Notes: generated from the sequence alone by a model not told the origin. Counted from the first letter of the stretch, positions 23,566-58,489 are shown. The stretch: 64,000 bases of DNA from Candidatus Eiseniibacteriota bacterium (GCA_963717505.1 OY970342.1:3136001-3200000); one strand, 5' to 3'. Numbers and translations are program-made.

Positions 23566-23598
23566 CGACCGCCGAGCTCGGGAAGGAGCACGCAGCGA

Positions 23599-26811: not shown

Positions 26812-26814
26812 GCC

Positions 26815-28084: not shown

Positions 28085-28136
28085 CCGTGGACGGTCCCCC
28101 GGCGGCTTGCGCCGGGCTGGTATAGTCGCCCGTCCC

Positions 28137-31080
<2,944 letters not shown>

Positions 31081-37723: not shown

Positions 37724-37757
37724 GCCGGTCAGCCTCCGAGGACGGAGAACATGCCGG

Positions 37758-38534: not shown

Positions 38535-41222
38535 ATGAAGGCATTGAAAATTGCCCTGATCGTATTCGTGGTCGTGGCTCTTCGGGCGGGTGGGTCGGCC
38601 GCCGCGGGGGCAAAGCCGCAGGCGGGTTCGGCTCCGGCCCTCCACCTGAAGACTCTTTCGCTGCGGCCCATCGGACCGGCCAACATGGGGGGACGGGTTT
38701 CGGATCTCGCGGTCCGCGCCGACCGGCCCTCTACATTCTATGTGGCCCTGGGCACCGGCGGTCTGATGAAGACCACGAACGCTGGCACCACGTGGAGCGC
38801 GGTGTTCGAGAAGGAGGCCGTGGCCTCGATCGGCGCCGTGGCTCTGTCGCCTCAGAACGCCTCCGTGGTCTGGGTCGGGACGGGCGAAGCCAACAGCCGG
38901 AACTCGTCGTCGTGGGGGAACGGCGTCTATCGCTCCGATGACGGAGGTGGAACCTGGCGGCACCTGGGACTCGAGGCGACCCACAACATCGCGCGCGTGG
39001 TGCCGGATCCCACCGACAGCAACGTCGTCCACGTCGCGGCCCTCGGGCGCCTGTGGGGCGAAGATCCCGAACGCGGCGTGTTTCGCACGACCGACGGCGG
39101 CCGCACGTGGAGCCACACGCTGCGCGCGGACGCGCGCACCGGCGCGTGCGACCTGGTGATGGCGCCCGACGATCCCACGACACTCTACGCGGCCTTGTAC
39201 ACCCGAAAGCGGACCCCTTGGTCCTATGAGTCCGGCAGCGAGACCGGCGGCATCTTCCGGTCGCGCGACCACGGGCGGACGTGGCAGAAGTTGGCCGGCG
39301 GCTTGCCCCGGCGCACCGGCCGCATCGGACTCGCGGTGTGCGCCGCGAGTCCGCGCTCGGTGTTCGCGGTGGTCGAGTCCGACGAGGGCGGCAACATCGA
39401 CGACTTCGAGTCCAAGAGTCGGGCGGGCGGCGTGTTCCGATCCGACGACAACGGCGAGACCTGGACGCGATTGTCGCCGCATACGCCCCGGCCTTTCTAC
39501 TTCAGCCAGATCCGGGTCCAACCGAACGACGATCGACGCGTCTACCTGCTCGGCTTCGACCTCTACGTGTCCGACGACGGCGGGCGCAGCTTCCGCGCCG
39601 GCGGTGCTCGCAACCTGCACCCCGATTTGCACGCCATGTGGATCCACCCCACCGACGGCGATCACATGCTGCTCGGCACCGACGGTGGCGTCTACCAGAC
39701 CTACGACCGCGGTCGCGCCTGGGACTTCCTCAACAACATGGCGGCCGGCGAGTTCTACAACATCGCGGTGGACCTCGGCGATCCTTACCGGATCTGCGGC
39801 GGGCTCCAGGACAATCAGGCCTGGTGCGGACCGAGCCGGACGCGGCTGAGCCGCGAGTCGTGGCTCGACGAGTCGTCGACCGAGCAGAACGCGATCCTGA
39901 ACGATCATTGGTTCTGCCTGGGCGGCGGCGACGGCTTCCACGTCGCGATCGATCCCGAGAATCCCGATCGCGTCTACCACGAATCACAGGGCGGCTACCT
40001 GATCCGCACCGATCTGGGGACCGGGGTGCGCCGCATGTTGCGGCCGTCGCCGAAGGAGGGGGAAGCGCGCTTCCGGTTCAACTGGAACACGCCGTTCTTG
40101 ATTTCGCCCCACGACCCGGCGGTGTTGTGGATGGGAGGGAACCACGTATTTCGCTTGTACGAGCGCGGCGAGCGCTGGCAGCGAGTCAGTCCGGACCTGA
40201 CCACGGCCGATCCCGTGAAGTCCTCGACGGTGGGCTCGAGCGCCGAAACCCATTGCACCATCACCACGCTCGACGAGTCGCCCAAGGTCGCGGGCCTCCT
40301 GTGGGTCGGTACCGACGACGGCAAGGTCTGGGTGTCGCGCGACTCCGGCGCGAAGTGGACCGATCTCACCAAGAATCTCAAGGTGCCCACCGGGCTGTAC
40401 GTCAGCCGGATCGTCGCGTCGCACCACGATGAAGCGACCGCGTACGTGTCGATCGACGGCCATCGCAGCGACCGCTTCGAGCCGTTCGTGCTGGTCACCC
40501 GCGACTACGGGCGCAGCTGGCGGTCGATCGCCGGGGATCTCCCCAAGGATGGGCCGGTCAAGGTGGTCCGGGAAGACTCCGCGAATCCCAAGCTGCTGTT
40601 CGCGGGGACCGAGTTCGGCCTGTTCGCGAGCCTCGATGATGGCGTCCACTGGGTTCGGCTCGACTCGGGGCTTCCGACGGTCGCGGTGGACGACCTGGTC
40701 ATCCACCCGCGGGAGCGCGACCTGGTGGTCGCCACCCACGGCCGCAGCCTGTACGTGCTCGATGACGTGAGCGGACTCGAGCAGTGGACCCCGGCCTGCC
40801 TCGAGCAGCCGGTCAGCTTCTTCGCCCCGCGACCGGCCACCGCCTATCACCTCGGCGTGCTGAGTGGTATCTGGGGTCAGAGGGCGTACGCAGGCAAGAA
40901 TCCGGCGTTCGGCGCTTACTTCAACTACTACGTGAAGGAGTTCAGCGGCGAAGGCGTCTCGATTGCGGTGCGCGACAGTGCCGGGGCAACGGTCCGGCGA
41001 CTCTCGGGCCCGGCGTCACCCGGATTCCAGCGCGTGGTCTGGGATCTACAGCCCGAAGCCCTGGAACGAATCGAGCGGCCGGAGTGGGCCGGTCAGCCGG
41101 CCTTCGTTCCAGCCGGGACCTATCGAGTCACGCTGAGCATGGGTTCGACGTCGGTCGAGCGAACGCTCGAGGTGCGGCACGCGCCCGGAGCCTCGGATCC
41201 CGATCGGCTCGCCAGTCCATGA
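38535..41222 (+). CDS. exported BNR/Asp-box (VPS10/sortilin-like) beta-propeller protein
   Basis: RPIGPANMGGRV, many S.D.G.TW Asp boxes, RFNWNTP, LVVATHGRS. Confidence 0.88.
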   Translation: MKALKIALIVFVVVALRAGGSAAAGAKPQAGSAPALHLKTLSLRPIGPANMGGRVSDLAVRADRPSTFYVALGTGGLMKTTNAGTTWSAVFEKEAVASIGAVALSPQNASVVWVGTGEANSRNSSSWGNGVYRSDDGGGTWRHLGLEATHNIARVVPDPTDSNVVHVAALGRLWGEDPERGVFRTTDGGRTWSHTLRADARTGACDLVMAPDDPTTLYAALYTRKRTPWSYESGSETGGIFRSRDHGRTWQKLAGGLPRRTGRIGLAVCAASPRSVFAVVESDEGGNIDDFESKSRAGGVFRSDDNGETWTRLSPHTPRPFYFSQIRVQPNDDRRVYLLGFDLYVSDDGGRSFRAGGARNLHPDLHAMWIHPTDGDHMLLGTDGGVYQTYDRGRAWDFLNNMAAGEFYNIAVDLGDPYRICGGLQDNQAWCGPSRTRLSRESWLDESSTEQNAILNDHWFCLGGGDGFHVAIDPENPDRVYHESQGGYLIRTDLGTGVRRMLRPSPKEGEARFRFNWNTPFLISPHDPAVLWMGGNHVFRLYERGERWQRVSPDLTTADPVKSSTVGSSAETHCTITTLDESPKVAGLLWVGTDDGKVWVSRDSGAKWTDLTKNLKVPTGLYVSRIVASHHDEATAYVSIDGHRSDRFEPFVLVTRDYGRSWRSIAGDLPKDGPVKVVREDSANPKLLFAGTEFGLFASLDDGVHWVRLDSGLPTVAVDDLVIHPRERDLVVATHGRSLYVLDDVSGLEQWTPACLEQPVSFFAPRPATAYHLGVLSGIWGQRAYAGKNPAFGAYFNYYVKEFSGEGVSIAVRDSAGATVRRLSGPASPGFQRVVWDLQPEALERIERPEWAGQPAFVPAGTYRVTLSMGSTSVERTLEVRHAPGASDPDRLASP

Positions 41223-41304: not shown

Positions 41305-41331
41305 GCGTTGGTTTCCCTCCCAGGAGCCCCT

Positions 41332-42441
41332 TTGGACACGCGAACGGCCCCCAGGCGTACTCCTTTTCACGCTCTGCATGAAGCTGCCGGCGCCAAGCTC
41401 ATCGAGTTTGCGGGTTTCTCGATGCCGGTGCGCTACTCGGGCGACGTGCGCGAGCACCTCGCGGTGCGCGAACGTGCCGGACTTTTCGACGTCTCGCACA
41501 TGGGCGAATTCCTGGTGTCGGGGCCGGGCGCGCTCTCGTTCCTGAATCGGATGATCACCAACGACCTCGAGTCGATCGTTCCGGGACAGGCGATCTACTC
41601 GCCCATGTGTCTGCTGAGCGGGGGAATCGTCGACGACTTGCTGGTCTACCGTGAGGCGGATCGTTTCCTGGTCGTGGTCAATGCGTCGAACCTTCGCAAG
41701 GACTTCGACTGGTTGCGCGAGCATTGTCCGGCCGGGGTCCAGTTGACCGACGTCTCAGAAGAGACCGCACTGCTGGCGATCCAGGGTCCGGCGAGCGAAG
41801 GAATCCTGCGCGGCCATGTGCCGGACGCCGCCCTCGAACTCGGGAGCTATCGCTTCGTCCGCGGCGCGCTGTTCGGGATCGAGGCCCTGATCGCGCGCAC
41901 CGGATACACCGGCGAAGACGGATTCGAGCTCTACTTCCACCCGCGACACGCGGAAACCGTCTGGACCGGCCTGCTCGGCGCCGGGCGATCCGCGGGGCTC
42001 GAGCCCACCGGTCTCGGGGCCCGCGACACGCTGCGTCTCGAGATGGCCTACATGCTCTACGGCAACGACATCGACGAAACCACCCATCCGCTCGAGGCGG
42101 GCATCGGCTGGACCGTGCGCCTCGCGAAGAGCGACTTCGTCGGGCGCGAGGCGCTGGTGCGCCTGAAGGAGCGCGGGTTGGAGCGCCGCCTGGTCGGGTT
42201 CGAGCTCGATGGTCGTCGGGTCGCGCGCCACGGCATGGTGGTCGAAAGCGGCGGGCGAAGCGTCGGCATCGTGACCAGCGGCACGTTCAGTCCGAGTCTC
42301 GAACGACCGATCGGCCTCGCGTACGTCGAGACGGCGCTCGCCAAGGCGGGCACGATGTTCGAAGTCGCGGCCGGGACCAGCCGGTTGCCGGCGCGCGTGG
42401 TGAAGACCCCGTTCTGGACCCGCGGCTCGAGGAGAGCATGA
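41332..42441 (+). CDS. gcvT: glycine cleavage system T protein (aminomethyltransferase)
   Basis: RTPFH, FAGFSMPVRY, FDVSHMGE, RTGYTGEDGFE, GLGARDTLRLE; TTG start. Confidence 0.96.
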   Translation: MDTRTAPRRTPFHALHEAAGAKLIEFAGFSMPVRYSGDVREHLAVRERAGLFDVSHMGEFLVSGPGALSFLNRMITNDLESIVPGQAIYSPMCLLSGGIVDDLLVYREADRFLVVVNASNLRKDFDWLREHCPAGVQLTDVSEETALLAIQGPASEGILRGHVPDAALELGSYRFVRGALFGIEALIARTGYTGEDGFELYFHPRHAETVWTGLLGAGRSAGLEPTGLGARDTLRLEMAYMLYGNDIDETTHPLEAGIGWTVRLAKSDFVGREALVRLKERGLERRLVGFELDGRRVARHGMVVESGGRSVGIVTSGTFSPSLERPIGLAYVETALAKAGTMFEVAAGTSRLPARVVKTPFWTRGSRRA

Positions 42442-42492: not shown

Positions 42493-42882
42493 ATGGCGTT
42501 TCCCGATGATGTGCGCTACACGGCCGAGCACGAATGGGCTCGCGTCGAAGGCGGTGTCGTCACCGTCGGCATCACCAGCTACGCGACCGAGCAGCTAGGC
42601 GACGTGGTGTTCGTGGAGCTACCCGAAGTCGGGCGCAAGCTCGAGGCGGCGAAGCCGTTCGGGCTGGTCGAGGCGGTCAAGACCGTGAGCGATCTCTACG
42701 CTCCGGTCGCCGGCGAAGTCGTCGCGGTCAACGCGTCGCTGGTCGACAATCCGGCGCTGGTGAATCAGGAGCCATTCGGCGAGGGTTGGATGATCCGGAT
42801 TCGTCCCACGCAACCGGACGACGTCAAAGCCCTGATGGGCCGGGCCGAGTACGAGAAGATGCTCGAGGAGCAGCACGCGTGA
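42493..42882 (+). CDS. gcvH: glycine cleavage system H protein
   Basis: HEW, LGDVVFVELP, lipoyl-Lys motif VEAVKTVSDL, GEGW. Confidence 0.97.
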   Translation: MAFPDDVRYTAEHEWARVEGGVVTVGITSYATEQLGDVVFVELPEVGRKLEAAKPFGLVEAVKTVSDLYAPVAGEVVAVNASLVDNPALVNQEPFGEGWMIRIRPTQPDDVKALMGRAEYEKMLEEQHA

Positions 42883-44216
42883 GCTTCATCGGAAGGAGCC
42901 CGGCCGAAGAGCAGCGGATGCTGGGCGAGATCGGCGTCCAGCGCTTCGAGGACTTGCTGGCGGCGATTCCGGCTTCGGTGCGTCGCACCGGCCGCCTGTC
43001 GGTCGGCGGGCCGTGGTCCGAGATCGAGCTGAGGTCGGGGTTCGGCGGGTGGGCGCGGTCGAACGCCGCCGAGAGTGCGATCTCGTTTCTCGGCGCCGGA
43101 GTCTACGAGCATTACATTCCGGCCGCGGTCGCGGCACTCGCTTCGCGCTCCGAATTCGCGACCGCGTACACGCCCTACCAACCCGAAGTCGCGCAGGGTT
43201 CGCTGACCGCGATCTTCGAGTTCCAGAGCATGATCGCCGAATTGACCGGCTGCGACGTCGCGAATGCGTCGATGTACGACGGCGCGACCGCGACCGTCGA
43301 GGCCGCGTTGCTGGCGCGCGCGCAGACCGGGAGGTCGCGGGTGGTGGTGGCGGGTGCCGTGCATCCGCACGTCGTCGAGGTCCTGCGCAGCTATCTCGAA
43401 GGCGACGTGGCGGTGGTCGGCGACCGCGGCGGCATAGCCGCGCCCGAGGATCTGCGAACGTCGCTCGGGCCCGACGTCGCGTGCGTCGTCTATCAGCATC
43501 CGAACTTCTTCGGGCTGCTCGAGAACCCACAGGGTCTGCACGCGATGGCGCATGAGGTCGGGGCCCTGGCGGTGGCGGTGTGCGATCCCATCGCGTTGGC
43601 GCTGGTCGAGCCGCCGGGCCGGTCCGGCGCCGACATCGTGGTCGGCGAGGGCCAGTCGCTCGGAAATCCGCCCTCGTTCGGCGGTCCGATGCTCGGATTC
43701 TTCGCGTGCCGCCAGGGACTGGTTCGTCGGTTGCCGGGCCGACTGGCTGCCGAGACCGCCGACCGCCGCGGACGGCGCGGCTACGTGCTCACGCTCCAGA
43801 CCCGCGAGCAGCACATTCGTCGGGAGAAGGCGACGTCGAACATCTGCACCAATCAGGGTCTGATGGCCCTGCGCGCGACGATCCACCTGGGATTGTTGGG
43901 CCACGAAGGCCTGCGCGAAGTCGCGAACCTGTGCGTGCAGAAGAGCCACCATGCCGCGCGGCTGGCCGAGGCGATTCCGGGCTACCGTCGAGCGCACACG
44001 GCGCCCTTCTTCCGCGAGTTTGCGCTCGAATGCCCCGGAGACGCGGCCGCGGTGGTCGAGCGCGGCCTCGCACGCGGGATTCTCGCCGGCGTCGATCTCG
44101 GACGCTTCCGGCCGGAATGGAAGCGCCTGTTGTTGGTCGCCGTCACGGAAGTGCGCACCGCGGACCAGATCGAACGTTGGGCGGCGGCGCTGCGCGACAG
44201 CGGGGGTGGGCGATGA
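42879..44216 (+). CDS. gcvPA: glycine dehydrogenase subunit 1
   Basis: [51 protein letters not shown]. Confidence 0.96.
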
Positions 44217-45730
44217 ATCACGACGCCCCGCAGGTTCCCCTGCGACTGTTGATTGAGCAGGGCGGCCCCGGGCACCGCGGCCCGGCGTTGCCCGCGTGCG
44301 ACGTGCCGGAGCGTCCGCTGGCCGAGCACCTGCCGGGGGTCGCGCTTCGCGAGGTACTCGCCCTGCCGCAGGTGTCCGAGCCCGAGGTGGTGCGTCACTT
44401 CATCCAGCTCTCGACGCTCAACCATCACATCGATCGCGGGTTCTACCCGCTCGGCTCGTGCACCATGAAGCACAATCCGAAGATCAACGACGAGATCGCG
44501 AGCCTGCCCGGCTTCGCACTCGCGCATCCGCTGGCCCCGGACCATGCGGTGCAGGGCGCTCTGCGCGTGATCCACGAGCTGGAGCGGACGCTGGCGGCGA
44601 TCACCGGCTTCAGTGCGGTGACCACGCAACCGGCGGCGGGAGCGCACGGCGAGATGACCGGCTTGATGATGATCCGGGCCTGGCATCGCTCGCGCGGCGA
44701 GGACGCACGGCGCCGCCGGGTCATTGTCCCCGACTCGGCGCACGGCACCAATCCGGCGAGCGTGAACTTGCTCGGCTGGGAAACGGTGACCATCGCCTCC
44801 GAGGAGCATGCGACGGTGAACCTCGACGAGCTGCGGAAGGCGCTCGACGACCGCACCGCTGCCGTGATGCTCACGGTGCCGAACACCCTCGGCCTGTTCG
44901 AGCCCCACATCCTCGAGGTCACGCGGATGGCCCACGAGGCCGGCGCCCAGGTCTACATGGATGGCGCGAATCTCAACGCACTGGTCGGAATCGTCCGGCC
45001 GGCGGATCTCGGCTTCGACGTCATGCACATCAACGTCCACAAGACCTTTTCGACGCCGCACGGTGGCGGCGGACCCGGAGCCGGTCCGGTGGCGGTCGCC
45101 GCGCACCTCGAACCCTTCCTGCCACGCCCCGTAGTGGTCGAGCGCGGCGGCACCTTCTCGCTCGACCACGACCGCCCGCACAGTATCGGGCGGGTGCACG
45201 GGTTCTTCGGGAACTTCGGAATCCTGGTCCGCGCGCTCACCTACATCCTCGGTCTCGGCCCCGAGGGCCTACAGCAGGTGAGTCGCGGCGCGATCTTGAA
45301 CGCCAACTACCTCATGCGACGCCTGGCGCGCACCTGGAACCTGCCGTACGCGGAACATTGCATGCACGAGTTCGTGCTCTCCGGACGCGGGCTGCGCAAG
45401 CACGGGGTCAAGACGCTCGACGTCGCGAAGCGGCTGCTCGATTTCGGCGTGCACGCGCCGACCGTGTACTTCCCGCTGATCGTCGAGGAAGCTCTGATGA
45501 TCGAGCCGACCGAGACCGAAACCCTGGACCGCCTCGACCACTTCGCCGCCGCGATGGAGCAGATCGCGCGCGAGGCCGTCGAGTCGCCGGCGACCCTGCA
45601 GCAGGCACCCTTCACGACTCCGGTCGACCGACTCGACGAGGGCCGCGCGGCCCGCGAACTGCGCCTGCGCTGGAACGTCCCGGGAGCCACGCCTTCTCCA
45701 TCGGCCGTGGAGACCGCCGTCCGCAAATGA
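44213..45730 (+). CDS. gcvPB: glycine dehydrogenase subunit 2
   Basis: [54 protein letters not shown]. Confidence 0.96.
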
Positions 45731-46149
45731 CTCCCGGGACGCTGGAGTGGACGTATCAGCCGTGGCGCGAATCTCCGGGGCGGGCGGCGATCGCGGCCGC
45801 ATTCACCGTGGGCTCGGCGGCCTGGTTGCTCGCCGCCTCGGGCTCGGCGGTGCTTACCGTGCTGATGTCGCTCGCGGTCGGGGCGCAGCTGGGGACGCTC
45901 CTGATCCCGACCCGTTGTCGGATCGACGGCGACGGCGTGCGTGCGCGTGGACCCTTCGGCTGGGAACGGCGGGCCTGGAGCGCGATCCGACGCGCCCACA
46001 TCGGGCCGGCGGGGCTCTGGGTGTCGCCTTTCGCCGCGCCTCGCCGGATGGATCGATTCCGTTCGCTGCTGTTGCCTCTGCCACGAGCGAAACGCGACGA
46101 CTTGCGGGCGGCACTCGGTCCGATCCTCTCCGAGCACGATCTGGGATGA
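45727..46149 (+). CDS. hypothetical 2-TM protein with a small beta-rich (PH-like) C-terminal domain
   Basis: ATGA overlap with gcvPB; two hydrophobic helices, then [11 protein letters not shown]...RAWSAIRR...LWVSPF. Confidence 0.7.
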
Positions 46150-46493
46150 CCAAGCCCGACGAGGTGCTCGACGAACAGGATCGGGCCCTGCTCGATCGCG
46201 TAGCGGCCCGCATCGTCGAGCTGCGGCTCGAGGTCCCGGCGATCCTGACGCTCGAAGGCAGCCGGCCGCTGACCGTGGTGGCCGGGCAGGCGATGATCTT
46301 CCTCGAACCGATCGTCCTGGCGTTGTTCCACTTCCCCGACTATCGCCGCTTCGCGCAGGCGATCGAGCGACGCGCGGCGCTCGACTACCTGATTCGCGGA
46401 ATCGAGACGCGCGCCGACGACGCGTTGGTGGCGCGCCGGGGTTCGCGAACCGCCGGCGGCAGCGAAGCCGGGCACGACCCGAGCGCGCGGTGA
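46146..46493 (+). CDS. conserved hypothetical protein
   Basis: overlaps both neighbours; LLDRVAARIVELRLEVPAILTLEGSRPL, AIERRAALDYLIRGIE. Confidence 0.7.
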   Translation: MTKPDEVLDEQDRALLDRVAARIVELRLEVPAILTLEGSRPLTVVAGQAMIFLEPIVLALFHFPDYRRFAQAIERRAALDYLIRGIETRADDALVARRGSRTAGGSEAGHDPSAR

Positions 46494-48298
46494 CCCTCGA
46501 CCCGAGCCAGATTCATTCGATCCTCGCGACCGACTGCGGCTCGACCACGACCAAGGCGATCCTGGTCGAGCGCGGCCCGGAGGGTTTCCGCCTGGTGACG
46601 CGCGGCGAGGCCCCGACCACGGTCGAAGCCCCGTTCGAAGACGTCACGCGCGGCGTGCTCAACGCCGTACGCGAGGTCGAGGAGCTGGCCGGACGCCGAC
46701 TGCTCGACGGCGAGCGCATCATCACGCCGCGCCAGGGCGACGACGGCGTCGACCTCTACCTGTCGACCTCGAGCGCCGGTGGCGGACTCCAGATGATGGT
46801 CTCGGGCCTGGTGCTGCAGATGACCGGGGAGAGCGCCCAGCGCGCCGCCCTGGGAGCGGGAGCGATCGTCATGGACGTGATTGCGCTCAACGACGGCCGG
46901 CGTCCGTACGAGAAGATCCGCCGCCTTCGGCAGCTGCGTCCGGACATGATCCTGCTTTCCGGCGGCACCGATGGCGGCGACATCAAACGCGTCGCCGAAA
47001 TGGCGGAGATCCTGGTGGCAGCCGACCCCAAGGCGCGGCTCGGCGCCGGCTACGAGCTGCCGGTGATCTACGCGGGCAACCAGGAAGCCGCACCCATCGT
47101 GCGCGACTGCCTGGGCGGGCGCACGGCTCTCACCGTGGTGCCCAACCTGCGCCCGAGCCTCGAACACGAGAACCTGAAGCCGGCCCGCGACGCGATCCAC
47201 GAACTGTTCATGGAGCACGTCATGGCGCACGCGCCGGGGTACAAGAAGCTGATGACCTGGACGCCGGTGCCGATCATGCCGACCCCGGGTGCGGTCGGGC
47301 TGATCATCGAGAAGGTCGCCAAGCGCGACGGCATCGCCGTCGTCGGCGTCGACATCGGCGGCGCGACCACCGACGTGTTTTCGGTGTTCCAGGACGTGTT
47401 CAATCGGACGGTCTCGGCCAATCTCGGCATGAGCTATTCGGTGTCCAACGTGCTGGCGGAAACCGGCATCGAGAACGTGCTGCGCTGGGTGCCGTTCGCG
47501 GTCGACGAAGTCGAGCTGCGGAACCGGATCAAGAACAAGATGATCCGGCCGACGACGATTCCGCAGTCGCTCGAAGACCTGGTGATCGAACAGGCCATCG
47601 CGCGCGAGGCCCTGCGCCTGGCGTTCGAGCAGCACAAGGCGCTCGCGGTCGGGCTCAAGGGGGTCCAGACCGAACGAACGATCTCGGACATCATGCACCA
47701 GTCGGCGAGCGGCAGCTCGCTGGTCAACCTCATGGACCTCGGTCTGCTGGTCGGATCGGGCGGCGTGCTGTCGCACGCGCCGCGCCGCGCCCAGGCCGCT
47801 CTGATGATGATCGATGCGTTCCTGCCGGAGGGCCTCACCCATCTCGCGGTCGACAGCATTTTCATGGCGCCTCAGCTCGGCATCATGTCGACGGTGCACG
47901 AGGAGGCGGCGACCCAGGTGTTCGAGCGCGATTGCCTGATCCGACTGGGCGCGGTGCTGGCGCCGGTCGGCGGCGGCAAGGAGGGCCAGGCCTGCCTCCG
48001 GATCGAACTCGAAGCACCCGCTCTCGAGCGCATCGAGCGATCGATCCCGTTCGGCCAGTTGGTGATGCTGCCGCTGCCGACTCAGGGCACGGCGCGGCTG
48101 ACCGCGACCCCGGAGCGCGGTTTCGATCTCGGCGCCGGGCGCGGCAAGTCGTTGCTCGCCGAGGTGCGCGCCGGGGTGTGCGGACTGATCGTCGACACGC
48201 GGGGCCGGCAACCCTTCCACCTGCCGTCGGACGCCAGTCGCATTCCCAAGCTGCGCCTGTGGAACCAGGCGCTCGGCGCGTACCCGCGCGAGGTGTGA
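46490..48298 (+). CDS. GlmL/MutL (glutamate mutase L-like) ASKHA-fold ATPase
   Basis: phosphate motifs ATDCGSTTTK and GVDIGGATTDVFS; TSSAGGGL, A..AALGAGA, PDMILLSGGTDGG, IMPTPGAV, GSGGVLSHAP. Confidence 0.85.
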   Translation: MTLDPSQIHSILATDCGSTTTKAILVERGPEGFRLVTRGEAPTTVEAPFEDVTRGVLNAVREVEELAGRRLLDGERIITPRQGDDGVDLYLSTSSAGGGLQMMVSGLVLQMTGESAQRAALGAGAIVMDVIALNDGRRPYEKIRRLRQLRPDMILLSGGTDGGDIKRVAEMAEILVAADPKARLGAGYELPVIYAGNQEAAPIVRDCLGGRTALTVVPNLRPSLEHENLKPARDAIHELFMEHVMAHAPGYKKLMTWTPVPIMPTPGAVGLIIEKVAKRDGIAVVGVDIGGATTDVFSVFQDVFNRTVSANLGMSYSVSNVLAETGIENVLRWVPFAVDEVELRNRIKNKMIRPTTIPQSLEDLVIEQAIAREALRLAFEQHKALAVGLKGVQTERTISDIMHQSASGSSLVNLMDLGLLVGSGGVLSHAPRRAQAALMMIDAFLPEGLTHLAVDSIFMAPQLGIMSTVHEEAATQVFERDCLIRLGAVLAPVGGGKEGQACLRIELEAPALERIERSIPFGQLVMLPLPTQGTARLTATPERGFDLGAGRGKSLLAEVRAGVCGLIVDTRGRQPFHLPSDASRIPKLRLWNQALGAYPREV

Positions 48299-48302
48299 CG
48301 CC

Positions 48303-49427
48303 GTGGCCCACGCCTACACTCCCGGATTGCGCGTCACCGGACGCACGGTGGTGCGCCGCGAGCGCCGGCTCCCGCTCAAGGGGTCGGTGGTGGTGGCGCC
48401 GCGTCAGTCGGTGAACGCCGACACGGTGGTCGCGCGCACCGAGCTGCCGGGAAACATCCACACCGTGAACCTGGCCGCCAAGTTGTCGATCGATCCCGCG
48501 CAGGCGGCGAGTTCACTCACCCGGCCGATCGGTTCGGCGGTGCGCAAGGGCGAGGAGATCGCGGCGGCGCGGAGCCTGTTCGGATTGATGCGCAATGCCG
48601 CCGCCGCCCCGGTCGCGGGTACGCTCGAGAGCGTTTCGTCGGTGACCGGACAGCTCATCGTGCGTGAGCCACCGATTCCGGTCGAGGTCCAGGCCTATGT
48701 CCGCGGCATCGTGGCCGAGGTCCTGCCCGAGGAAGGGGTCGTCGTCGAGTCGAATGCCGCGCTGCTGCAGGGAATTTTCGGCGTCGGCGGCGAGACGTTC
48801 GGGCCGATTGCGATCGCGGCGACCTCGACGTCCCAGCCACTGGAGCGTGACCAGCTGCGTCCCGAGCATCGCGGGTGCGTCGTGGTCGGTGGCGCGCACG
48901 TTTCGCACTCGGTGCTCCTGCATGCCCGAGATCTGGGGGTGGCCGCGGTGGTGGTCGGCGGTTTCGACGACCGCGACCTGCGCGAACTGCTCGGCCGCGA
49001 CCTGGGGGTCGCGATCACCGGGTCCGAAGACCTCGGGATCACTCTGGTGCTCACCGAGGGCTTTGGCCACATTCCAATGGCGGATCGCACCTGGCGCCTG
49101 CTGAACGAGCATACGGGGCGGACCGCGTCGGTCAGCGGCGCGACCCAGATCCGAGCGGGCGTCCTGCGCCCGGAGATCCTGATTCCGCTCGATTCCTCGA
49201 GTGTCGTCGGCGTCGAGGCGGGACAATCGACCGGTCTCGAGATCGGATCCCTGATCCGGGCCATTCGACAGCCGTATTTCGGTCGCATCGCGAGCGTCGT
49301 CGAGCTGCCCGCCGAACTCCAGGCGCTCGACTCCGAAGCGCAGGTCCGCGTCCTGGTCGCCGAGTTCGCGGACGACCAGACTCGGGCGCTGATCCCCCGC
49401 GCCAACGTGGAGTTGATCGCGTCGTGA
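48303..49427 (+). CDS. conserved hypothetical protein with barrel-sandwich hybrid repeats, a central alpha/beta (swiveling-like) domain and a C-terminal KOW/SH3-like domain
   Basis: GSAVRKGEEIA...APVAGTLESV and VQAYVRGIVAEV; GCVVVGG...ARDLGVAAVVVGG; EIGSLIRAIRQPYFGRIASV...IPRANVELI. Confidence 0.7.
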   Translation: MAHAYTPGLRVTGRTVVRRERRLPLKGSVVVAPRQSVNADTVVARTELPGNIHTVNLAAKLSIDPAQAASSLTRPIGSAVRKGEEIAAARSLFGLMRNAAAAPVAGTLESVSSVTGQLIVREPPIPVEVQAYVRGIVAEVLPEEGVVVESNAALLQGIFGVGGETFGPIAIAATSTSQPLERDQLRPEHRGCVVVGGAHVSHSVLLHARDLGVAAVVVGGFDDRDLRELLGRDLGVAITGSEDLGITLVLTEGFGHIPMADRTWRLLNEHTGRTASVSGATQIRAGVLRPEILIPLDSSSVVGVEAGQSTGLEIGSLIRAIRQPYFGRIASVVELPAELQALDSEAQVRVLVAEFADDQTRALIPRANVELIAS

Positions 49428-49471
49428 ACCACGATCGCCTGGTCGTCATGCCGCCGGCGTTCGGTCCATTT

Positions 49472-49504
49472 CCGTTGACAGACTGCAACGGCCGCTGCTA
49501 CGGT
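49472..49504 (+). promoter_or_regulatory. internal sigma70-type promoter with an inverted repeat over the -35 box
   Basis: TTGACA-N18-TACGGT; CCGTTG-ACAGACTG-CAACGG at 49472-49491. Confidence 0.6.
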
Positions 49505-49575
49505 GCCGCGCGATCGTGCCGGGGATACCAGGCACGATTTTGCTTTTCGCCGCAGCCCGACGTCGAGGAATGACG

Positions 49576-50783
49576 ATGCGAGTCGCATCCCAGCGGTCGA
49601 GGAAGCCAGGGGAGCAGGGTCGCGGGGCGTGCGTGTTGCTGGGCATCCTCCTGTTCGCGGCGAGCGCCTGGGCGCAGGAGTCCCCGGGTCCGGCGAGTTC
49701 CACGCCGCCGGCTCCGCCCAGCAACCTGACGGTGGTCGATCCGCCGAACGACGCCGGCCGCTCCCTGGTTCTGAACTGGACACCCTCCGCCGACGACGGC
49801 ACCCCCGGCGTCAAGGGGTATCAATTGCATCGCGCGAAGGATCCGGGCGGACCCTGGGATCTGGTCGATTCCGTCAATGCCGGGGTCGCCACCTACACCG
49901 ATCAAAGCGTGAAACGGGATATCGACTACTTCTACCGGGTGACGGCCACCGGCCCCTTCGGCCTGGTGCCTGCGCGCAGCGTCACCGGCCCGGTCCGCGC
50001 CGAAGCCGCAGTGGTACAACGATGGCCGGACCAGCGTACTGATCGGCCTGATCCTGTTCTTCGCGTTCGTCCTCTACTTCATCGCCAGCGCCCAGGCTGG
50101 GACGAAACCGTTCGTGCGCCGGATCGCGGGCATCGACGCGATCGAGGAGGCGATCGGGCGCGCCACCGAGATGGGCCGCTCGGTGCTCTACATCCCGGGC
50201 ATTCTCGACATCGACGACATCCAGACGGTCGCGGGACTGGTGATCCTCGAGAACGTCGCCAAGATCACGGCCCGCTACGAGACGCCGATCACCGTGCCGG
50301 TCACCTATCCGATCCCGTTCACGATCGCCGAGGAGATGGTCAAAGCCGGGTACCTGCAGGCCGGAAAGCCCGACCAGTACGACCCGAACAGCGTGCGCTT
50401 CATCTCGCCCGAGCAGTTCGCTTACGTCGCCGCGGTGACCGGCATCATGATGCGCGACAAGCCGGCCGCCCACATCTTCATGGGCGCGTTCTACGCCGAG
50501 TCGCTGTTGCTCGCCGAGACCGGCTTCGCGAACGGCGCCATCCAGGTGGCCGGGCACGGCCAACGTCCACCAGCTTCCGTTCTTCGTCGTCGCCTGCGAC
50601 TACACGCTGATCGGCGAGGAGCTGTACGCGGCCAGCGCCTACCTGTCCGGCGACCCCAAGCTGGTCGGCGGGCTCAAGGGCGCCGACCTGATGAAGATCG
50701 TGATCATCCTGGCGGTGTTCGTCGGCTGCGTCCTCGAGACCATGCACATCACGGCGTTCACCAAGTTGATGGAGACCCGGTGA
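49576..50783 (+). CDS. signal peptide + fibronectin type III + DUF6754-like membrane protein (indels near 50010 and 50552)
   Basis: PAPPSNLTV.D.PND.G.SL.LNWTPS...YFYRVTA (FN3); RRIAGIDAIEEAIGRATEMGR, QFAY, FYAESLLLAE, QVAGT...LPFFVVACDYTLIGEELYAASAYL. Confidence 0.75.
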
Positions 50784-50790
50784 GGGCGGC

Positions 50791-51457
50791 ATGAAGCGCG
50801 AGATTCCGCTCCTGCTGACCGCGGTGCATCGGGCTGTTCATGATCCTGTCGTTCTTCGTGCCCCACCACGTCGGTCAGCGTTCCGGCGGACTTCCTGCAG
50901 GCGACGGCGATCATCGTGGTGGCGTTCGGCTACGTCCTGGGCGGCGCGAATGCGCTGCGCGTCAACCTCGACGCGATCGACAAGCGCCAGCCGGGCTGGC
51001 TCTACAAGGTCGTGCTGGTGGTGGCGCTGCTCGCCACGGTGGTCATCGGCTTCATCGACGGCGTCTCGCGCCAGGGCGGCTTCCTCAACGAGGGCATCGC
51101 AGTCGAAGTGGATCTACGACCGTCTCTACTCGCCGATGGCAGTCGACGATGTTCTCGCTGCTCGCGTTCTTCATCGCCTCGGCGGCGTTCCGCGCGTTCC
51201 GCATCCGCACGGTCGAGGCCGGCCTGCTCGCGGTCGCCGCGCTGATCGTCATGCTCGGCCGCGTGCCGGTCGGCGACGTGATGAGCGGGGCCCTGCCCGA
51301 GTGGCTGCGTCTGGGCGCGATGCAGGACTGGATCATGAACGTGCCGCAGAACGCGGCGAAGCGCGCGATCCTGATCGGCGCCGCGCTGGGCGTGATGGCG
51401 ACCGGCCTGCGCGTGATCCTCGGCATCGAGCGCTCGTACCTGAGCGGGGAGGACTGA
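50791..51457 (+). CDS. hypothetical polytopic membrane protein (several indels)
   Basis: MKREIPLL..., STMFSLLAFFIASAAFRAFRIRTVEAGLL, MLGRVP, WIMNVPQNAAKRAILIG...LRVILGIER. Confidence 0.7.
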
Positions 51458-51458
51458 C

Positions 51459-52289
51459 GTGAACCTGCCGCTCGAGAACCTCGACCGCCGCTGGATCTTC
51501 CTGATCATGGGGGTGCTGGTGCTGCTGGCCCGCTGCTCTTCCCGCTGTCGCTGCCGCTCATCGTCTCGCCGCCGGTCCACGGCTTCCGGCGACGCGATCG
51601 ATCGCAGTCCCGAACGGCTCGACCGTGCTGCATGTCGTGCGACTACGACCCGGGCGCGATTCCCGAGATGGTGCCGATGACCCGGACCGCGCTCCGGCAC
51701 CTGCTGTCGAAGGACTGCAAGGTGGTGATGACCGTGCTGTGGAACGGCGGGCCGGGCCTGGTCGACAGCGTCACCCGCGAGGTGGCGCGCGAGTTCCCGG
51801 GCAAGACCTACGGCGTGGACTGGGTCAACCTCGGCTACAAGGCCGGCAACGAGGCGGTGATGGTGGTGATGGGCCAGGGCATCGCCAACGCGTTCCCGCG
51901 CGACTACCGCGGCAACGAGACCCGCACGCTGCCGATCATGGCGCAACGTGCGCGACTACTCGAGCTTCCCGCTGCTCGTGAACATCTCGTCCGGCTATCC
52001 CGGCACCAAGGAGTGGGTGCAGCAGGTGCAGGCGCGCTTCCACCTGCCGATGGTCGCGGGCTGTCACCGCGGTCAGCGCGCCCGAGTACTACCCCTATCT
52101 GCAGTCGGGCCAGCTGCTCGGCCTGCTGGGCGGCATGGCCGGCGCCGCCGAGTACGAGAAGGCGCGCGGCGAGAAGGGCACGGCGACCGAGGGCATGGAC
52201 GCCCAGTCGCTGGCGCACATCTTCGTGGCCATCTGCATCGTGCTCGGCAACGTGGTTCGCCGCGGCCAGAAGCGAGAGGCGTCGCATGA
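51459..52289 (+). CDS. hypothetical membrane-anchored alpha/beta protein (several indels)
   Basis: DRRWIFL, DYDPG..PEM.PM...LRHL, YGVDWVNLGY..G, EWVQQV, TAVSAPEYYPYLQSGQLLGLLGGMAGAAEYE, MDAQSLAH. Confidence 0.7.
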
Positions 52290-52986
52290 ACGTGCATCCG
52301 GCGACATCGGCGTCTGGATCGCCGCGCTGCTGACGCTGTGCATCTTCAGCTTCCTGTACAAGGACAATCCGTTCTACAAGTTCGCCGAGCATCTGTTCGT
52401 CGGCGTCTCGGCCGGCTACTTCATCATCCTCAACTTCTGGACGGTGATCGTCCCCAACCTGGTGCGAGCCGCTGTGCCGCCATCGTTCGGACGCGGCGCG
52501 GGCGGTGCACCGCCGGCCGACCGCCCGGCATGTTCGCCGCCGGAGCTCGGCGACTATCGCGGCTGCCTGCTGATCCCGGCGTTGCTCGGCGTGCTGCTGT
52601 TCACGCGTCTGTTCGGCAAGCATCGGCTGGCTGTCGCGCTGGTCGCTGGCGGTGATCATCGGCGTCTACGCCGGGATCAAGACCACCGGATTCGCGCAGG
52701 GCGACTTCGTCGCGCAGGTGCAGGCGAGCCTGCAGCCGCTGTGGATCCGGCGACCCGTGGCGATACGTTCAACGCGATCGTGTTCACGGTCGGACTGATC
52801 ACGTCGCTGCTGTTCTTCTTCTTCAGCCGCGAGCACAAGGGCGCACTCGGCGTCGCCTCGCGGGTCGGCATCGTCTTCCTGATGATCGGGTTCGGCGCCG
52901 GCTACGGCTACACGGTGATGTCGCGCATCTCGCTGCTCATCGGGCGGTTCCAGTTCCTGCTCGAGACCTGGCTGGGCCTGGGCTGA
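52286..52986 (+). CDS. hypothetical polytopic membrane protein (indels)
   Basis: IAALLTLCIFSFLYKDNPFYKFAEHLFVGVSAGY, LLFFFFSREH, FLMIGFGAGYGYTVMSRISLLIGR. Confidence 0.72.
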
Positions 52987-53029
52987 CGGTCGCCCCGCCC
53001 GCACCCACGCGGGCACGCGTCGCGCCGGC

Positions 53030-53771
53030 CTCACTTCTCTGGTGCGACGCGACGCGCCGGCCGCGTCCACATGCGAGCGCGACGCGCGGCTGCTCGAAGC
53101 CGCCGAGGCCGACTCGGGTTGCGGCGCCGGTCCTGCGGCTCTTTCGCTTCCGCCCGCGCGGGCATCACCCTTGGGCGTGCGCAGGATCCTGATGCGCACG
53201 CTCGACCTTGGCCGCTGCGCCGCCGACGGGATCGCGTGGGCGGTGCGGCCCACCGGCGGACGCGCCATCTTCCACGACGAGGAGTGGACCTACTCGTTCA
53301 CCGCGCGTCGCGACGACCCGGAGTGGGGCGGCATCGCTCGACGAACGGCTACGCAGCGAATCGCGAGCTGGATCGTCGGCTCACTCGTGCGACTCGGCGT
53401 CCCCGCCGAGATCGCCGCGAGCGCGGCGCGAGCGTACGCGGTCGCACGCGGCGCGACCGTGTTTCGCCTCCACCACTCGACACGAGATCGTGCTCGACGG
53501 GCGCAAGCTGGTCGGCAGCGCGCAACGGCGTGCGGCGTCGGCCTGCTTCAGCAGGGAAGCCTGCTGCTCGGGCCGGGCCACGCCCGGCTCGCCGACTACC
53601 TGCCGCTCGACCTCGAGGCGCGTGTCGCGAACGCGTCGTCGGCTCGAGCTGCAGGCCACCGATGCCGCGCGGTATCTCGGCGTCGATCCGCCGCTCGAAC
53701 GGTGGGCGGCCGCGCTCGCCGCGTCGCTTCCCGGCGTTCGTCGATTCAAGACGCTGCCCGCGGCCCGATGA
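53030..53771 (+). CDS. LplA/LipM-family lipoate-protein ligase or octanoyltransferase (heavily indel-affected, start uncertain)
   Basis: ITLGRAQ, RPTGGRAIFH.EEWTYS, PCF....HEIV.DGRKLVGSAQRR, LLQQGSLL across frames. Confidence 0.8.
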
Positions 53772-53801
53772 TTGACCGGCCCGGAAAGCCGCTCCTATAC
53801 T
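53772..53801 (+). promoter_or_regulatory. sigma70-type promoter for the peptide ABC operon
   Basis: TTGACC-N18-TATACT. Confidence 0.65.
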
Positions 53802-53849
53802 GCGCGTTCGCGCCCTTGCGCCGACCCACGCTCGCTGCGGAGGAATCAC

Positions 53850-55688
53850 GTGAGTTCGACCCGGATCCGGTGGCTACGGGCGGGGGCCGCCCTGCTCGCG
53901 TGCTGTGTTTTGACGCTCCCGCTCGCGAGTTGCGGGGGCACCGCTTCCCAGGCGCGCGTCCGCTATCAGGATCCGCATCCACTCCCCGCCGACACACTGC
54001 TTCTACCCATGGCGGACGTCGGGCAATACGGCGGGCGCTTCGTCATCGGACAGACCAATCCGCCCAAGACGTTCAACGGGATCATGGCCAACGAGACGTC
54101 GTCGACCGACATCATCGACCGAATGTTCACCACGCTGGTCGGTTTCGACTACCCGAGCGAGACGTTGTATCCGCTGCTGGCGAAGTCCTGGGAACTCAGG
54201 GCGGACGGCCTGACCTGGACGTTTCACCTGCGCGACGGCGCCGCGCTTCTCCGACGGAGCACCCGATCACCTCGGCCGACGTCCTGTTCTCGTTCGAGGT
54301 GTCGTACGACGAAACGCTGCACCCCTCGATCCAGGACCTGATCAAGTCCGACGGGCAAGCGGTTCCAGGTCGAGGCCCCGGATTCCCGCACCGTGGTGAT
54401 CCGCACGCCGATCCCCAACTCGGTCCTGCCGGAGATCATGACTTCACTGCGGATCATGCCCAAGCACCAGCTCGAGGCCGCCTTCCGCTCCGGCGACTTC
54501 GCGTCGGCCTACAGCGTCAGCACCGCGCCCGAGAGCATCGTCACCAGCCACGCCTGGCGGCTCAAGCAGTACGTGCCCGGGCAGAAGACCGTGCTCGAGC
54601 GCAATCCGTACTGGTTCGGTGTCGACGCGAAGGGGCAGCGCCTGCCCTATCTGGACGAGCTGGTCTACCTGATCGTCCCCGACCAGAACACCGCGGCGCT
54701 CAAATTCCAGTCGGGCGAGCTGGATGCCCTCGACAACGTCAAGCCCGAGGACTACACGACCTTCGACGACGGTGCGGCGGCGGGCGACTACACCGTGCAC
54801 GATCTGGGTCCGGCCCTCACCACGAACTTCCTCTGGTTCAACCTCAATCGGGTGCGCGAGCCGGCCGCCGGCAAGCGGGTCGGCACTCCGCAGGTCGGCG
54901 CGGTCAAGTACGCCTGGTTCAGCGACGCGCGCTTCCGCCGCGCCGTGTCGAAGGCCATCGACCGCGAAGCCATCATCCGCGGGCCGTTCTTCGGCCACGC
55001 CGTCAAGAACTGGAGCCAGGCGACGCCGGGGAACCGCACCTGGTACACGCCCGACATCGTGCATTGGGACCACGATCCCGAGGGCGCCCGGCAGCTGCTC
55101 GCCGAGATCGGTTACCGCGACCGGAACGGCGACGGCGTCGTCGAGGACGGCGACGGCAACGCGGTGAGCTTCACGCTCAAATCGAACGGCGACAACGCCA
55201 TCCGCGTCGGGATCATGAACCTGGTGCGCGACGACCTGGCTGAAGTCGGAATCCGTTGCGTGCCGACGCCGCAGGACTTCAACACCCTGATCACCAATTT
55301 CCGCCAGGACTTCCAATACGAGGCCGGACTGCTGGGGCTCCAGAGCGGCACGCCGCCGGATCCCGGCCAGGCCCAGAACGTCTGGATGTCGAGCGGCCTG
55401 ACGCACTACTGGAACATCCGTCAGCCGCGCCCGGAGACCGAGTCCGAGGCGAAGGTGGATGCGCTCATGGACTCGCTGACCTCGAATCCGAACCTGGCGC
55501 GGCGCAAGGAGCTGTGGCGCGACATCCAGAACCTGGTCAACCAGGAGTCTTTCATCGTCTGGCTCCCGGTGCTCAAGGTGCGGATTCCGATCCGCAACCG
55601 GTTTGGAAACGTCGAGCCGAGCGTGATGGCGCACCGGATTCTGTGGAACATCGAGCGCGTCTACCTCAAGACGCGCATGCCGGCGTGA
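53850..55688 (+). CDS. family 5 (Opp/Dpp) ABC substrate-binding lipoprotein (indels near 54245-54355)
   Basis: lipobox LASC, PKTFNGI, PLLAKSWE..DGLTWTFHLR, ERNPYWF, LPYLD, DRNGDG. Confidence 0.9.
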
Positions 55689-57520: not shown

Positions 57521-58489
57521 ATGCGCACTCTGCTGGTCAAGCGGCTGTTCCAGATCGTGCCGCTCCTGATCGGAATCTCCGCGCTGACCTTCCTTCTGCT
57601 GCAACTGGCGCCGGGCGACTTCCTCAACACCATGGCCGAGAATCCGCAGATCTCCGCCGAGACTCTGGAAGCCATGCGCCGGCGCTTCGGCCTGGATCGG
57701 CCGTGGTACGTGCAGTACGGCCTGTATCTCCAGAATCTGTTCCTGCGGCTGGACTTCGGCGAGTCGTTCTCGCGACACCAGCCGGTGTTCACGGTGCTGC
57801 GGGAAGGCCTGCTCAACACGTTGCTGCTCGCGGGTGCCGCGGCGATCGTCACCTGGGGACTGGCGATTCCGCTCGGCGTCTGGGCGGCGGTGCGCCAGTA
57901 CACCTGGGTCGATCGGATCCTTTCGTTCCTCGCGTTCATTTGGCTGTCGATCCCCGAGGTGCTCTCCGGTCTGTTGCTGCTCTTGCTGGCCGCCAAGACC
58001 GGCTGGTTTCCGGTGGGGGGTATGCGCTCGGTGGATTACGAGGAACTGGACTTGTTGGGCCGGATGATCGACGTGGTGCATCACCTGGCCCTGCCGGCGC
58101 TGGTGGTCGGCTTGATTCCGCTCGCCGGCCGCATGCGGCAGATGCGCGGCAACCTGCTCGACGTCCTGCGGCTCGACTACGTGACCACGGCGCGGGCCAA
58201 GGGGCTCGACGAGAACACGGTGGTGTTCAAGCACGCGGTGCGGAACGCGATCAATCCGTTGATCACGCTGTTCGGCTACACGCTCGGATCGCTGGTCTCG
58301 GGTTCGTTCGTCGCCGAAATCATCTTCTCGTGGCCGGGGTTGGGACGCATCACGCTCGACGCCATCCTGTCGCAGGACCAGTACCTGGTCATGGGCTCGG
58401 TGCTCATGGCGTCCGTGGTGCTGATCCTCGGAAACCTGGTCGCCGATGTCCTGCTCGTGGTCGCCGACCCGCGGATCTCGTATGAGTGA
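57521..58489 (+). CDS. peptide ABC permease (OppB/DppB-like)
   Basis: [43 protein letters not shown]. Confidence 0.92.

Follow-up and report, generated by a model that had tools for sequence, protein, structure and literature searches.

A GlmL-like ATPase, a putative fixed partner and four associated membrane proteins: a proposed two-module system, widespread and so far undescribed, in an Eiseniibacteriota genome

In the genome of a Candidatus Eiseniibacteriota bacterium (GCA_963717505.1 OY970342.1) a stretch of 64,000 nucleotides, referred to here as the window (positions 3,136,001-3,200,000 of a single-contig 4.16-Mb genome that is 86.7% complete), carries a run of eight genes behind the glycine cleavage genes, designated a, b and C to H. 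The locus appears to be one of many copies of a two-module system that is widespread and has not been described. The soluble module would be made up of b, the ATPase C and its partner D, with the PH-like protein a added in this lineage, and the membrane module would be made up of E, F, G and H. The best explanation that we can offer for the system, one that stands at about an even chance, is an envelope machine driven by the ASKHA-fold ATPase and acting through exported domains. Genes were called from third-position G+C and stop-to-stop frames (regional G+C is 66-73%), and the eight genes are as follows.

45727..46149, + strand: a, Pfam bPH_6 (E 5.8e-6, 26.7 bits against a cut-off of 22).
46146..46493, + strand: b, no family.
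46490..48298, + strand: C, intact, 602 amino acids, PF13941 MutL (E 2.8e-123).
48303..49427, + strand: D, intact, 374 amino acids, no family above cut-off.
~49570..50783, + strand: E, fn3 below cut-off, DUF6754 split over two frames.
50791..51457, + strand: F, polytopic, no family.
51459..52290 (end approximate), + strand: G, bitopic, no family.
52233..52986 (start approximate), + strand: H, polytopic, no family.

The linkage of these genes was followed by scanning with an alignment of D, one genome per species, from which the best 80 of at least 570 confirmed stretches were taken with up to 10 kb of flank; the components were mapped with their own profiles, and 86 loci were mapped altogether. 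Among the 38 D loci having 10 kb on both sides, C adjoins D in 27, and in 22 of these 27 the complete set E, F, G and H is found within 10 kb; E to H without C were found in none of the 38. Over the 80 loci, C occurs with all four membrane genes in 39, with one to three of them in 7 (mostly at contig ends) and with none in 12, and D only was seen in 22. The loci come from about ten lineages, among them Eisenbacteria, Fermentibacteria/Aegiribacteria, Zixibacteria, Latescibacterota, Fidelibacterota, Ignavibacteriales, Lentisphaeria, Bdellovibrionales and Nitrospirota. The order of the genes differs from one to another, being E-F-G-H-a-b-C-D in L069 and a-E-F-G-H-b-b-C-D in L071, and in L074, L063 and L068 the membrane set is placed on the opposite strand. 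Clustering of all flanking open reading frames (ORFs) gave no further family conserved across phyla. In one locus (L019 6448-14900, genome G027), which comes from a relative belonging to another family, an insertion of about 8.4 kb with two very long ORFs (936 and 1171 amino acids) separates D from E.

Where D stands alone (Poribacteria, WOR-3 and Calditrichaeota) its neighbours are unrelated and no common partner was seen, and in 5 of 5 such genomes (three Poribacteria, one WOR-3 and one Calditrichaeota) both C (PF13941) and DUF6754, the family of E, are located elsewhere. A similar picture was obtained with 41 related genomes, a count that includes G026 (all three present) and from which no statistic was drawn, as related genomes are not independent: 34 hold C, D and DUF6754, and the same six, which are 82-95% complete, are without all three. 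Genome G007 has C and a cut D and no DUF6754, and in G030 DUF6754 is only a contig-end piece below cut-off. In a single case (P0391) the frame reads from D directly into the signal peptide, FN3 and DUF6754 domains of E, which may reflect a lost stop codon. Because the linkage survives shuffling of the gene order, because C and D occur as fusions (described below) and because the components are present or absent together, C-D and E-F-G-H appear to belong together. The earlier note, made from the DNA of the window before any database was searched, had proposed an ATPase with a soluble partner, encoded with four membrane proteins; neighbourhood, fusions and presence or absence uphold this, and the same genes cluster elsewhere in 22 of the 27 fully flanked C-D loci.

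The tie between C and D is the closest one in the set. Relatives of D amount to 2278 representatives (E<=1e-3, 50% clustering), and 51 of its 52 long homologues are fusions with PF13941 ahead of D, about 990-1005 amino acids in length, in Marinimicrobia and Planctomycetota; two of the fusions (P0152 and P0221) were confirmed by Pfam. From these sequences, C and D would form one unit in which D is the fixed, obligate partner of C. The model of D has a mean predicted local distance difference test score (pLDDT) of 92.5 and is built of three domains, whose Z values lie in a commonly seen range and are used as fold labels, not as claims of homology. Residues 49-123 are a barrel-sandwich hybrid (RnfC 8ahx_C, Z 7.8, root-mean-square deviation (rmsd) 2.5, 64 aligned; NqrA 4u9o, Z 7.2). 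Residues ~130-299 are a swivelling beta/beta/alpha domain, of which ~152-299 was superimposed on the phosphohistidine domain of Enzyme I of the phosphotransferase system (PTS; 2wqd, Z 8.9, rmsd 3.0, 109 aligned) and on RraA (3c8o, Z 8.8), and which also resembles rifampin phosphotransferase and aconitase X. Residues 311-374 are a KOW/SH3-like barrel (Z ~8-9). The protein had at first been described as a barrel-sandwich/KOW protein, which the model bears out while adding the swivel domain. The invariant residues of D, including Q156, G157, G160, T281, R284 and R289, are concentrated in that swivel domain. A search with the model in Foldseek found no whole-chain relative. Two candidate identities for D were rejected: a mobile domain of the phosphoenolpyruvate-utiliser/PTS Enzyme I kind was ruled out by the lack of a conserved phospho-accepting His, and a lipoyl or biotinyl carrier by the lack of an invariant Lys, with Biotin_lipoyl scoring 17.7 bits against a cut-off of 22.1.

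The ATPase C matches PF13941 over the full profile (1-450 of 450, 412.5 bits against a cut-off of 27), is the sole copy in the genome and is a long form with about 120 additional C-terminal residues. In 20 sequences from several phyla three segments are invariant, ATDCGSTTTK (D15-x-G17-S18-T19-T20-T21-K22), DIGGATTD (D288-I-G-G-A-T-T-D295) and GSGGxLSHAPRR (G422-S-G-G-x-L-S-H-A-P-R-R433), which we take to be the phosphate-binding and adenosine-binding loops of the ASKHA fold. Both phosphate motifs had been noticed before in the window alone, and C looks like an active ATPase or part of a machine. A phmmer search of C against the PDB gave no matches. Across the same 20-sequence alignment, which spans several lineages, identity to the C of the window is at least 62%, and the protein is conserved over its full length with a mean column identity of 70%. 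Conservation of this extent is typical of proteins with many contacts, for example filament formers, and it would suit an account in which C polymerises or cycles like MreB, FtsA or PilM and E-F-G-H, together with a and b, anchors and positions envelope proteins. The adaptor-like appearance of the PH-like a and the small b, and the exported protein-binding domains borne by E, point the same way. However, C is closest to GlmL/Or-4 and the hydantoinase branch and not to the filament-forming actins, and we know of no bacterial actin with a fixed 1:1 fusion partner of the D kind; a cytoskeletal or scaffolding role is therefore considered improbable.

Membership of PF13941 also raises the question of whether C is a classical GlmL that helps a coenzyme-B12 mutase encoded elsewhere, and source annotations do name the fused homologues "glutamate mutase L". 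The curated models argue otherwise. Scored on the orthologue of locus L014, which is 82% identical to the C of the window, C falls below the GlmL model NF040745 (210.7 bits, cut-off 475), the Or-4 model NF040744 (203.8 bits, cut-off 600) and TIGR01319 (155.2 bits, cut-off 204.05). Furthermore, C is present in 35 of the 41 related genomes and PF06368 (GlmE) was matched in 0 of 41, a search whose positive control was itself matched only below cut-off and in one control genome. On the whole 4.16-Mb contig neither PF06368 nor EutB was found, and B12-binding domains are present in four places only, each more than 790 kb away. The diol dehydratase family PF02286 gave no match, a result that is uninformative as its control matched nowhere. 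Since C lies below every curated GlmL cut-off and GlmE was found in none of the 41 genomes, C appears not to be a glutamate mutase helper, and we regard the classical role as exceedingly improbable. The earlier note had pointed out that no mutase and no cobalamin gene lies in the window and had set a tie to a B12 mutase against one to DUF6754; the first observation extends to the contig for PF06368 and EutB, and as to the second, C follows DUF6754. The database label "glutamate mutase L" would thus be misleading for C, and reconstructions that count it as glutamate fermentation would be wrong.

The four membrane proteins were characterized by hydropathy of intact orthologues. In E a signal or anchor helix is followed by an exported part of about 130 residues (FN3), a transmembrane helix and then KKPFVRR, a domain of about 195 residues and a last transmembrane helix. 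The DUF6754 family (PF20539) is matched in the window in two frames (257.7 bits for profile positions 2-188 and 105 bits for 185-256) and in the intact orthologue with 379.7 bits, and its search returned at least 8000 relatives. The model of E (pLDDT 75) begins with an FN3 domain (Z 13), from which a helix leads to a Rossmann-like domain of alternating strands and helices, and it ends in a further helix; FN3 matches occupy both lists of the fold search, and residues 237-296 have a pLDDT below 50. F has about six hydrophobic helices, and G has an N-terminal transmembrane helix preceded by an invariant RR, an alpha/beta domain of about 220 residues and a C-terminal transmembrane helix. For H, at least three strong helices are predicted, probably with others besides them. 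The positive-inside rule would place the DUF6754 domain in the cytoplasm and the G domain in the periplasm. No Pfam or NCBIfam relative was found for F, G or H. Profile searches of PDB sequences gave nothing for F and H, only noise for G (E 0.6 and 1.2) and only FN3 for E, and a query of the ESM Atlas with the DUF6754 protein returned no usable match. Paralogy of E with G and of F with H was considered and dropped as unsupported (hhalign probabilities 0.6 and 0.3). The initial description of an FN3 and DUF6754-like protein with three further membrane proteins is in agreement with Pfam, the fold search and hydropathy.

The DUF6754 proteins seem to carry variable ectodomains on a constant core. 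At E<=1e-10 there are 720 long members of 757-2160 amino acids, and in seven that were scanned DUF6754 comes after 500-1200 residues of FN3 repeats or BamB/PQQ-type beta-propellers, or, in one, ahead of RHS repeats. Likewise, the membrane module can be multiplied, as E-F-G-H was found twice or three times in tandem beside one C-D in L072, L099, L083, L102 and L063, and genomes G040 and G043 have 4 and 3 DUF6754 genes, respectively, on separate contigs. Several membrane cassettes per ATPase module are reminiscent of transporters that share an energiser, and, together with the roughly 16 predicted transmembrane helices of E to H and the invariant charged residues of F (R129, R132 and R186) and H (E26, R200 and R207), they give some support to a primary solute transporter, in which E-F-G-H would be the permease, G its periplasmic binding part and C-D a novel energising ATPase, the substrate in this phylum being connected with the use of glycine, peptides or lipoate. 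Peptide-type ABC importer genes do lie beside the cluster in the window and in L087 and L076. Nevertheless, no subunit matches any transporter family of Pfam or NCBIfam, the large and variable FN3, beta-propeller and RHS ectodomains of E are unusual for a small-molecule permease, and no substrate-linked neighbour is conserved across phyla, which leaves a solute transporter a rather unlikely account. No ABC_tran ATPase or cognate permease domain was found by Pfam in a to H, and the Opp-type genes that come after the cluster form a unit of their own.

The two small proteins are more variable in their occurrence. As judged by orthologue hydropathy, a is a small membrane protein whose N-terminus forms one or two hydrophobic helices and which also carries a PH-like domain of the bacterial type; it is present in 39 of the 86 loci and absent from all Nitrospirota loci, including L123-L128, none of which has it, and is thus an accessory part limited to certain lineages. 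The protein b is small, soluble and helical with the conserved motif ..VPAIxFLESxKPLSFxGSQ.., and its alignment of 17 sequences has 5 invariant columns. It was found in 51 of the 86 loci, where it either accompanies C-D or marks the junction with E-H, being located between D and E in L076, L087 and L094. In Ignavibacteriales and Zixibacteria loci (L063 9196-9972, L056, L068 and L093) a protein of about 258 amino acids with a signal peptide and a C-terminal transmembrane helix lies between C and D (phmmer E 1e-54 to 1e-57), and may be a lineage-specific additional subunit.

In the window the reading frames of the membrane half are broken, which the earlier note had ascribed to indels and had understated. 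Frameshifts were counted by frameshift-aware alignment of the window to the intact orthologues of locus L014 (a, b, C of 603 amino acids, D of 374, E of 432, F of 216, G of 278, H of ~245 and the lipoate ligase-like LplA-like protein of 260). Overall there are about 31 single-base frameshifts: none in C and D, 2 in E (near 50002 and 50552), 4 in F (near 50827, 50870, 51099 and 51142), 6 in G, 7 in H, 8 in the LplA-like gene and about 4 in the first solute-binding protein gene behind it. They span about 5.7 kb (50002-55674), with 27 of them within 4.35 kb (50002-54353), and there are none in gcvTHP, a, b, C and D over the 8 kb upstream of 50002. This clustering beside clean genes is what might be expected if the membrane half of this genome were a decaying run of pseudogenes, and it also counts against assembly error that no frameshift site sits in a homopolymer run. 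On the other hand, 29 of the 31 events are one additional base and only 2 one missing base, and the alignment required no stop codons and no larger deletions. The frame-corrected proteins, whose identity to L014 is 68% for E, 79% (170/216) for F, 73% (202/277) for G and 72% (177/245) for H, match as well as the intact orthologues from other genomes do, which are 66-78% identical. Contigs of public runs, which come from relatives, mostly less than 95% alike, and so speak for the relatives and not for the strain of the window, cover only small shares of the stretch (<=0.08); in four of the runs they are without one base at 50550, 50869/50875, 51138, 51941/51944, 52062/52064 and 52617, all of which are frameshift sites.

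Two further anomalies in the window look like frameshifts as well. The uvrA gene is split over two overlapping frames (UvrA domains at 27981-30674 and the end of the ABC domain at 30127-31077), and at 58425-61653 an OppC-like permease and an ABC ATPase are merged into one frame of 655 amino acids. Both count against decay of the membrane half, and a single-contig genome of only 86.7% completeness would fit an unpolished long-read assembly. Because 29 of the 31 events are of the same kind and the genes of the relatives are intact, insertion errors of a poorly polished assembly are the most likely source of the broken frames in E to H, in the LplA-like gene and in the first solute-binding protein gene, and real decay is a very improbable explanation. 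The stretch of 50.0-55.7 kb needs to be polished before its annotation can be trusted.

Taken as a machine, C-D would bind and hydrolyse ATP at the cytoplasmic face of E-F-G-H, where the most plausible docking sites are the DUF6754 domain, the proteins b and a, or both. The conformational change would pass through the membrane to the G domain and to the variable ectodomain of E, and mechanical or transport work would be done in the envelope, as by systems of the FtsEX/MacB type with a different ATPase, with one C-D pair serving several E-F-G-H cassettes. A bolder form of this proposal, in which an ASKHA ATPase and a swivel-domain partner energise a four-subunit complex that passes force to interchangeable FN3, beta-propeller or RHS domains and so represent a new class, is put forward tentatively, at less than an even chance. 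Several observations weigh against an ATP-driven envelope machine. Linkage of the modules is frequent but not obligatory, since no member of E-H lies within 10 kb in 5 of the 27 fully flanked C-D loci, and in 11 of the 38 fully flanked D loci both C and E-H are missing from the neighbourhood. Physical contact of the two modules is a prediction, topology follows from hydropathy and charge rules only, and transmission of mechanical force is an analogy, so that the data might fit solute transport or a scaffold about equally. No solved structure, experiment or characterised homologue was found in Pfam, NCBIfam and PDB for D, the DUF6754 part of E, F, G and H. Furthermore, D has no invariant His, Cys, Asp or Lys in 74 sequences, nor a nearly invariant His, and therefore phosphorelay through D seems unlikely. 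A complex prediction of D with b and the cytoplasmic part of E scored 0.00 in two runs and carries no weight. Of the ATP-driven membrane machine proposed in the earlier note, the linkage of ATPase, partner and membrane genes has thus stood, and drive by ATP hydrolysis stays a suggestion.

In the window the system is flanked by genes of glycine and lipoate metabolism, followed by a peptide-type importer:

41308..42441, + strand: gcvT, glycine cleavage T protein (Pfam GCV_T 1e-90, GCV_T_C 2e-24).
42493..42882, + strand: gcvH, lipoyl carrier H protein (Pfam GCV_H 4e-46).
42885..44216 (start approximate), + strand: gcvPA (GDC-P 9.9e-113, residues 117-548 of ORF 42534-44216).
44213..45730, + strand: gcvPB (GcvP2_C 1.2e-27; tblastn 79% identity to the L014 orthologue).
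53013..53783, + strand: LplA/LipB-family lipoate/octanoyl protein ligase-like gene (LplA-B_cat fragment, E 1.6e-7, 31.9 bits).
53784..55688, + strand: first family-5 solute-binding protein, peptide-type ABC importer (SBP_bac_5 1.7e-52).

There are two family-5 solute-binding genes 3' of the LplA-like gene. Stop and start codons overlap (ATGA/GTGA) at the gcvPB/a (ATGA), a/b and b/C junctions, C and D are 4 nucleotides apart and D and E about 140, and to judge from this spacing genes a to D are translationally coupled to gcvPB. The arrangement had been given before as eight co-directional genes after gcvPB with overlapping or near-abutting codons, then an LplA-like gene, and both Pfam and the stop/start positions confirm it. 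The product of the LplA-like gene is predicted to be an LplA/LipB family member; its orthologue matches Pfam with E 3.1e-25 (89.8 bits) but scores far below the NCBIfam LplA cut-offs (46.7 against 280 and 48.3 against 480). In this phylum the system is probably co-transcribed with gcvTHP and the LplA-like gene and therefore probably expressed together with glycine catabolism. A scan of 41-58 kb for promoters and terminators gave signals no better than in shuffled sequence, and the anti-phage defence models of PADLOC-DB 2.0 had no matches among the eight proteins at E<=0.01.

Genes of the gcv set adjoin a-b-C-D in 29 of the 86 loci (Eisenbacteria, Fermentibacteria/Aegiribacteria, one WOR-3 locus and metagenome-assembled genomes) and an LplA-like gene is present in 22, after H in Eisenbacteria and before a in the Latescibacterota locus L092; these neighbours would also suit the solute transporter considered above. 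In L017, L079 and L088 gcvTHP-a-b-C-D is retained where E-H lies elsewhere. LipA is found directly upstream of b-C-D-E-F-G-H in two Nitrospira loci, L090 (5231-6169) and L104 (4715-6828), the second of which also has a lipoyl-bearing E2. Such neighbours, the overlap of a with the gcvPB stop codon and the lipoyl-domain-like barrel-sandwich fold of D could mean that C-D is an ATP-dependent chaperone or "reactivase" for glycine cleavage or a 2-oxoacid dehydrogenase, or serves in lipoate handling, with the membrane module supplying or exporting a related compound. GlmL relatives are described as reactivating chaperones in one article (PMC4682846), which is consistent with such a role.

The wider set of loci speaks against it. 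Six further Nitrospirota loci keep the order b-C-D-E-F-G-H, and none of them has a gcv, LipA, E2 or LplA gene within about 8 kb, and a lipoate link as a general rule in Nitrospirota, seen only in L090 and L104, was dropped. The loci of Zixibacteria, Bdellovibrionales, Lentisphaeria, Fidelibacterota and Ignavibacteriales have unrelated neighbours, D has no invariant Lys to carry lipoate, and the gcv-linked loci are concentrated in few related phyla, where common descent may explain much of the linkage. An accessory role for lipoyl enzymes is therefore given little probability, and the tie to glycine and lipoate is a lineage-limited lead, not a defining feature. The earlier suggestion of a connection with glycine or lipoyl metabolism thus stands in Eisenbacteria, Fermentibacteria/Aegiribacteria and a WOR-3 locus, and fails in most other lineages.

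Other parts of the window hold further envelope and surface proteins. Immediately 5' of gcvT lies a Sortilin/BNR-repeat protein of 1027 amino acids (38139-41222, + strand), and a family of about 950 amino acids is located 5' of gcvT in 14 related loci. At 34727-37813 (- strand) there is a protein of 1029 amino acids with a prepilin-type N-terminal methylation motif, SdrD B-like domains and FG-GAP repeats. The region 18758-28081 has an ExbB-ExbD-ExbD-TonB set and then a Yip1-domain protein, an outer-membrane efflux protein, a membrane-fusion-like protein and two MacB/FtsX-type permease genes, and looks like an ordinary envelope transport island.

We found no paper on DUF6754, PF13941, PF20539 or TIGR01319, supplement tables being outside the scope of that search, none linking GlmL to ASKHA or to such a membrane system, and none on glycine cleavage in Eisenbacteria; the earlier view that the system is undescribed agrees with this, as neither a known system nor a publication could be matched to it. 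These genes are common, and they are strongly conserved in a large number of lineages, most of them uncultured, among which are the nitrifiers of the Nitrospirota and phyla abundant in soil and sediment. If C-D does power E-F-G-H, no membrane machine before it would have had an ASKHA ATPase of the GlmL branch as its motor, and four families of membrane proteins would gain a testable context. In the bolder form of the proposal, ABC ATPases, AAA+/secretion ATPases and ion-driven stators would be joined by a fourth kind of membrane energiser, with one ATPase module for several cassettes.

No machine described so far corresponds to this system. Of its proteins C alone belongs to a named family, whose defining tests it fails. 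With GlmL/MutL and Or-4 (NF040745, NF040744, TIGR01319, PF13941) it shares the Pfam family and the ASKHA fold, but C lies below all three curated cut-offs, has about 120 more C-terminal residues and, unlike GlmL, was never found here with GlmS/GlmE; it has D as its neighbour or fusion partner and is accompanied by the four membrane proteins. The resemblance of D to the barrel-sandwich of NqrA/RnfC and the swivel domain of PTS Enzyme I is one of domains, with Z in the common range; of Rnf/Nqr only the 65-residue barrel of D is similar (Z 7.2-7.8), whereas F, G and H have no Pfam match at E<=0.01-0.1 and neither F nor H showed an invariant Cys or His that might hold a cofactor. The PilM-PilN-PilO, FtsA and MreB-RodZ systems also have an ASKHA-fold protein encoded with bitopic membrane proteins (here E, G and a), yet C comes from the GlmL/hydantoinase branch, the polytopic F and H and the partner D are additional, and no pilus or division genes are conserved nearby. 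FtsEX, MacB and LolCDE offer an analogy only, that of a cytoplasmic ATPase on membrane subunits with sizeable exported domains; the cluster has no ABC ATPase, FtsX or MacB_PCD domain, and its putative energiser is of the actin/Hsp70 fold. The diol/glycerol dehydratase reactivase DdrA-DdrB and EutA are ATP-dependent chaperones that combine an ASKHA ATPase with a swivelling beta/beta/alpha domain. In contrast to these, the partners here are membrane proteins, no GlmE or EutB B12 enzyme client was found in the genome, and the swivel domain is located in a separate three-domain protein with barrel-sandwich and KOW modules, although in the C-D fusions the swivel domain of D is joined to the ATPase itself.

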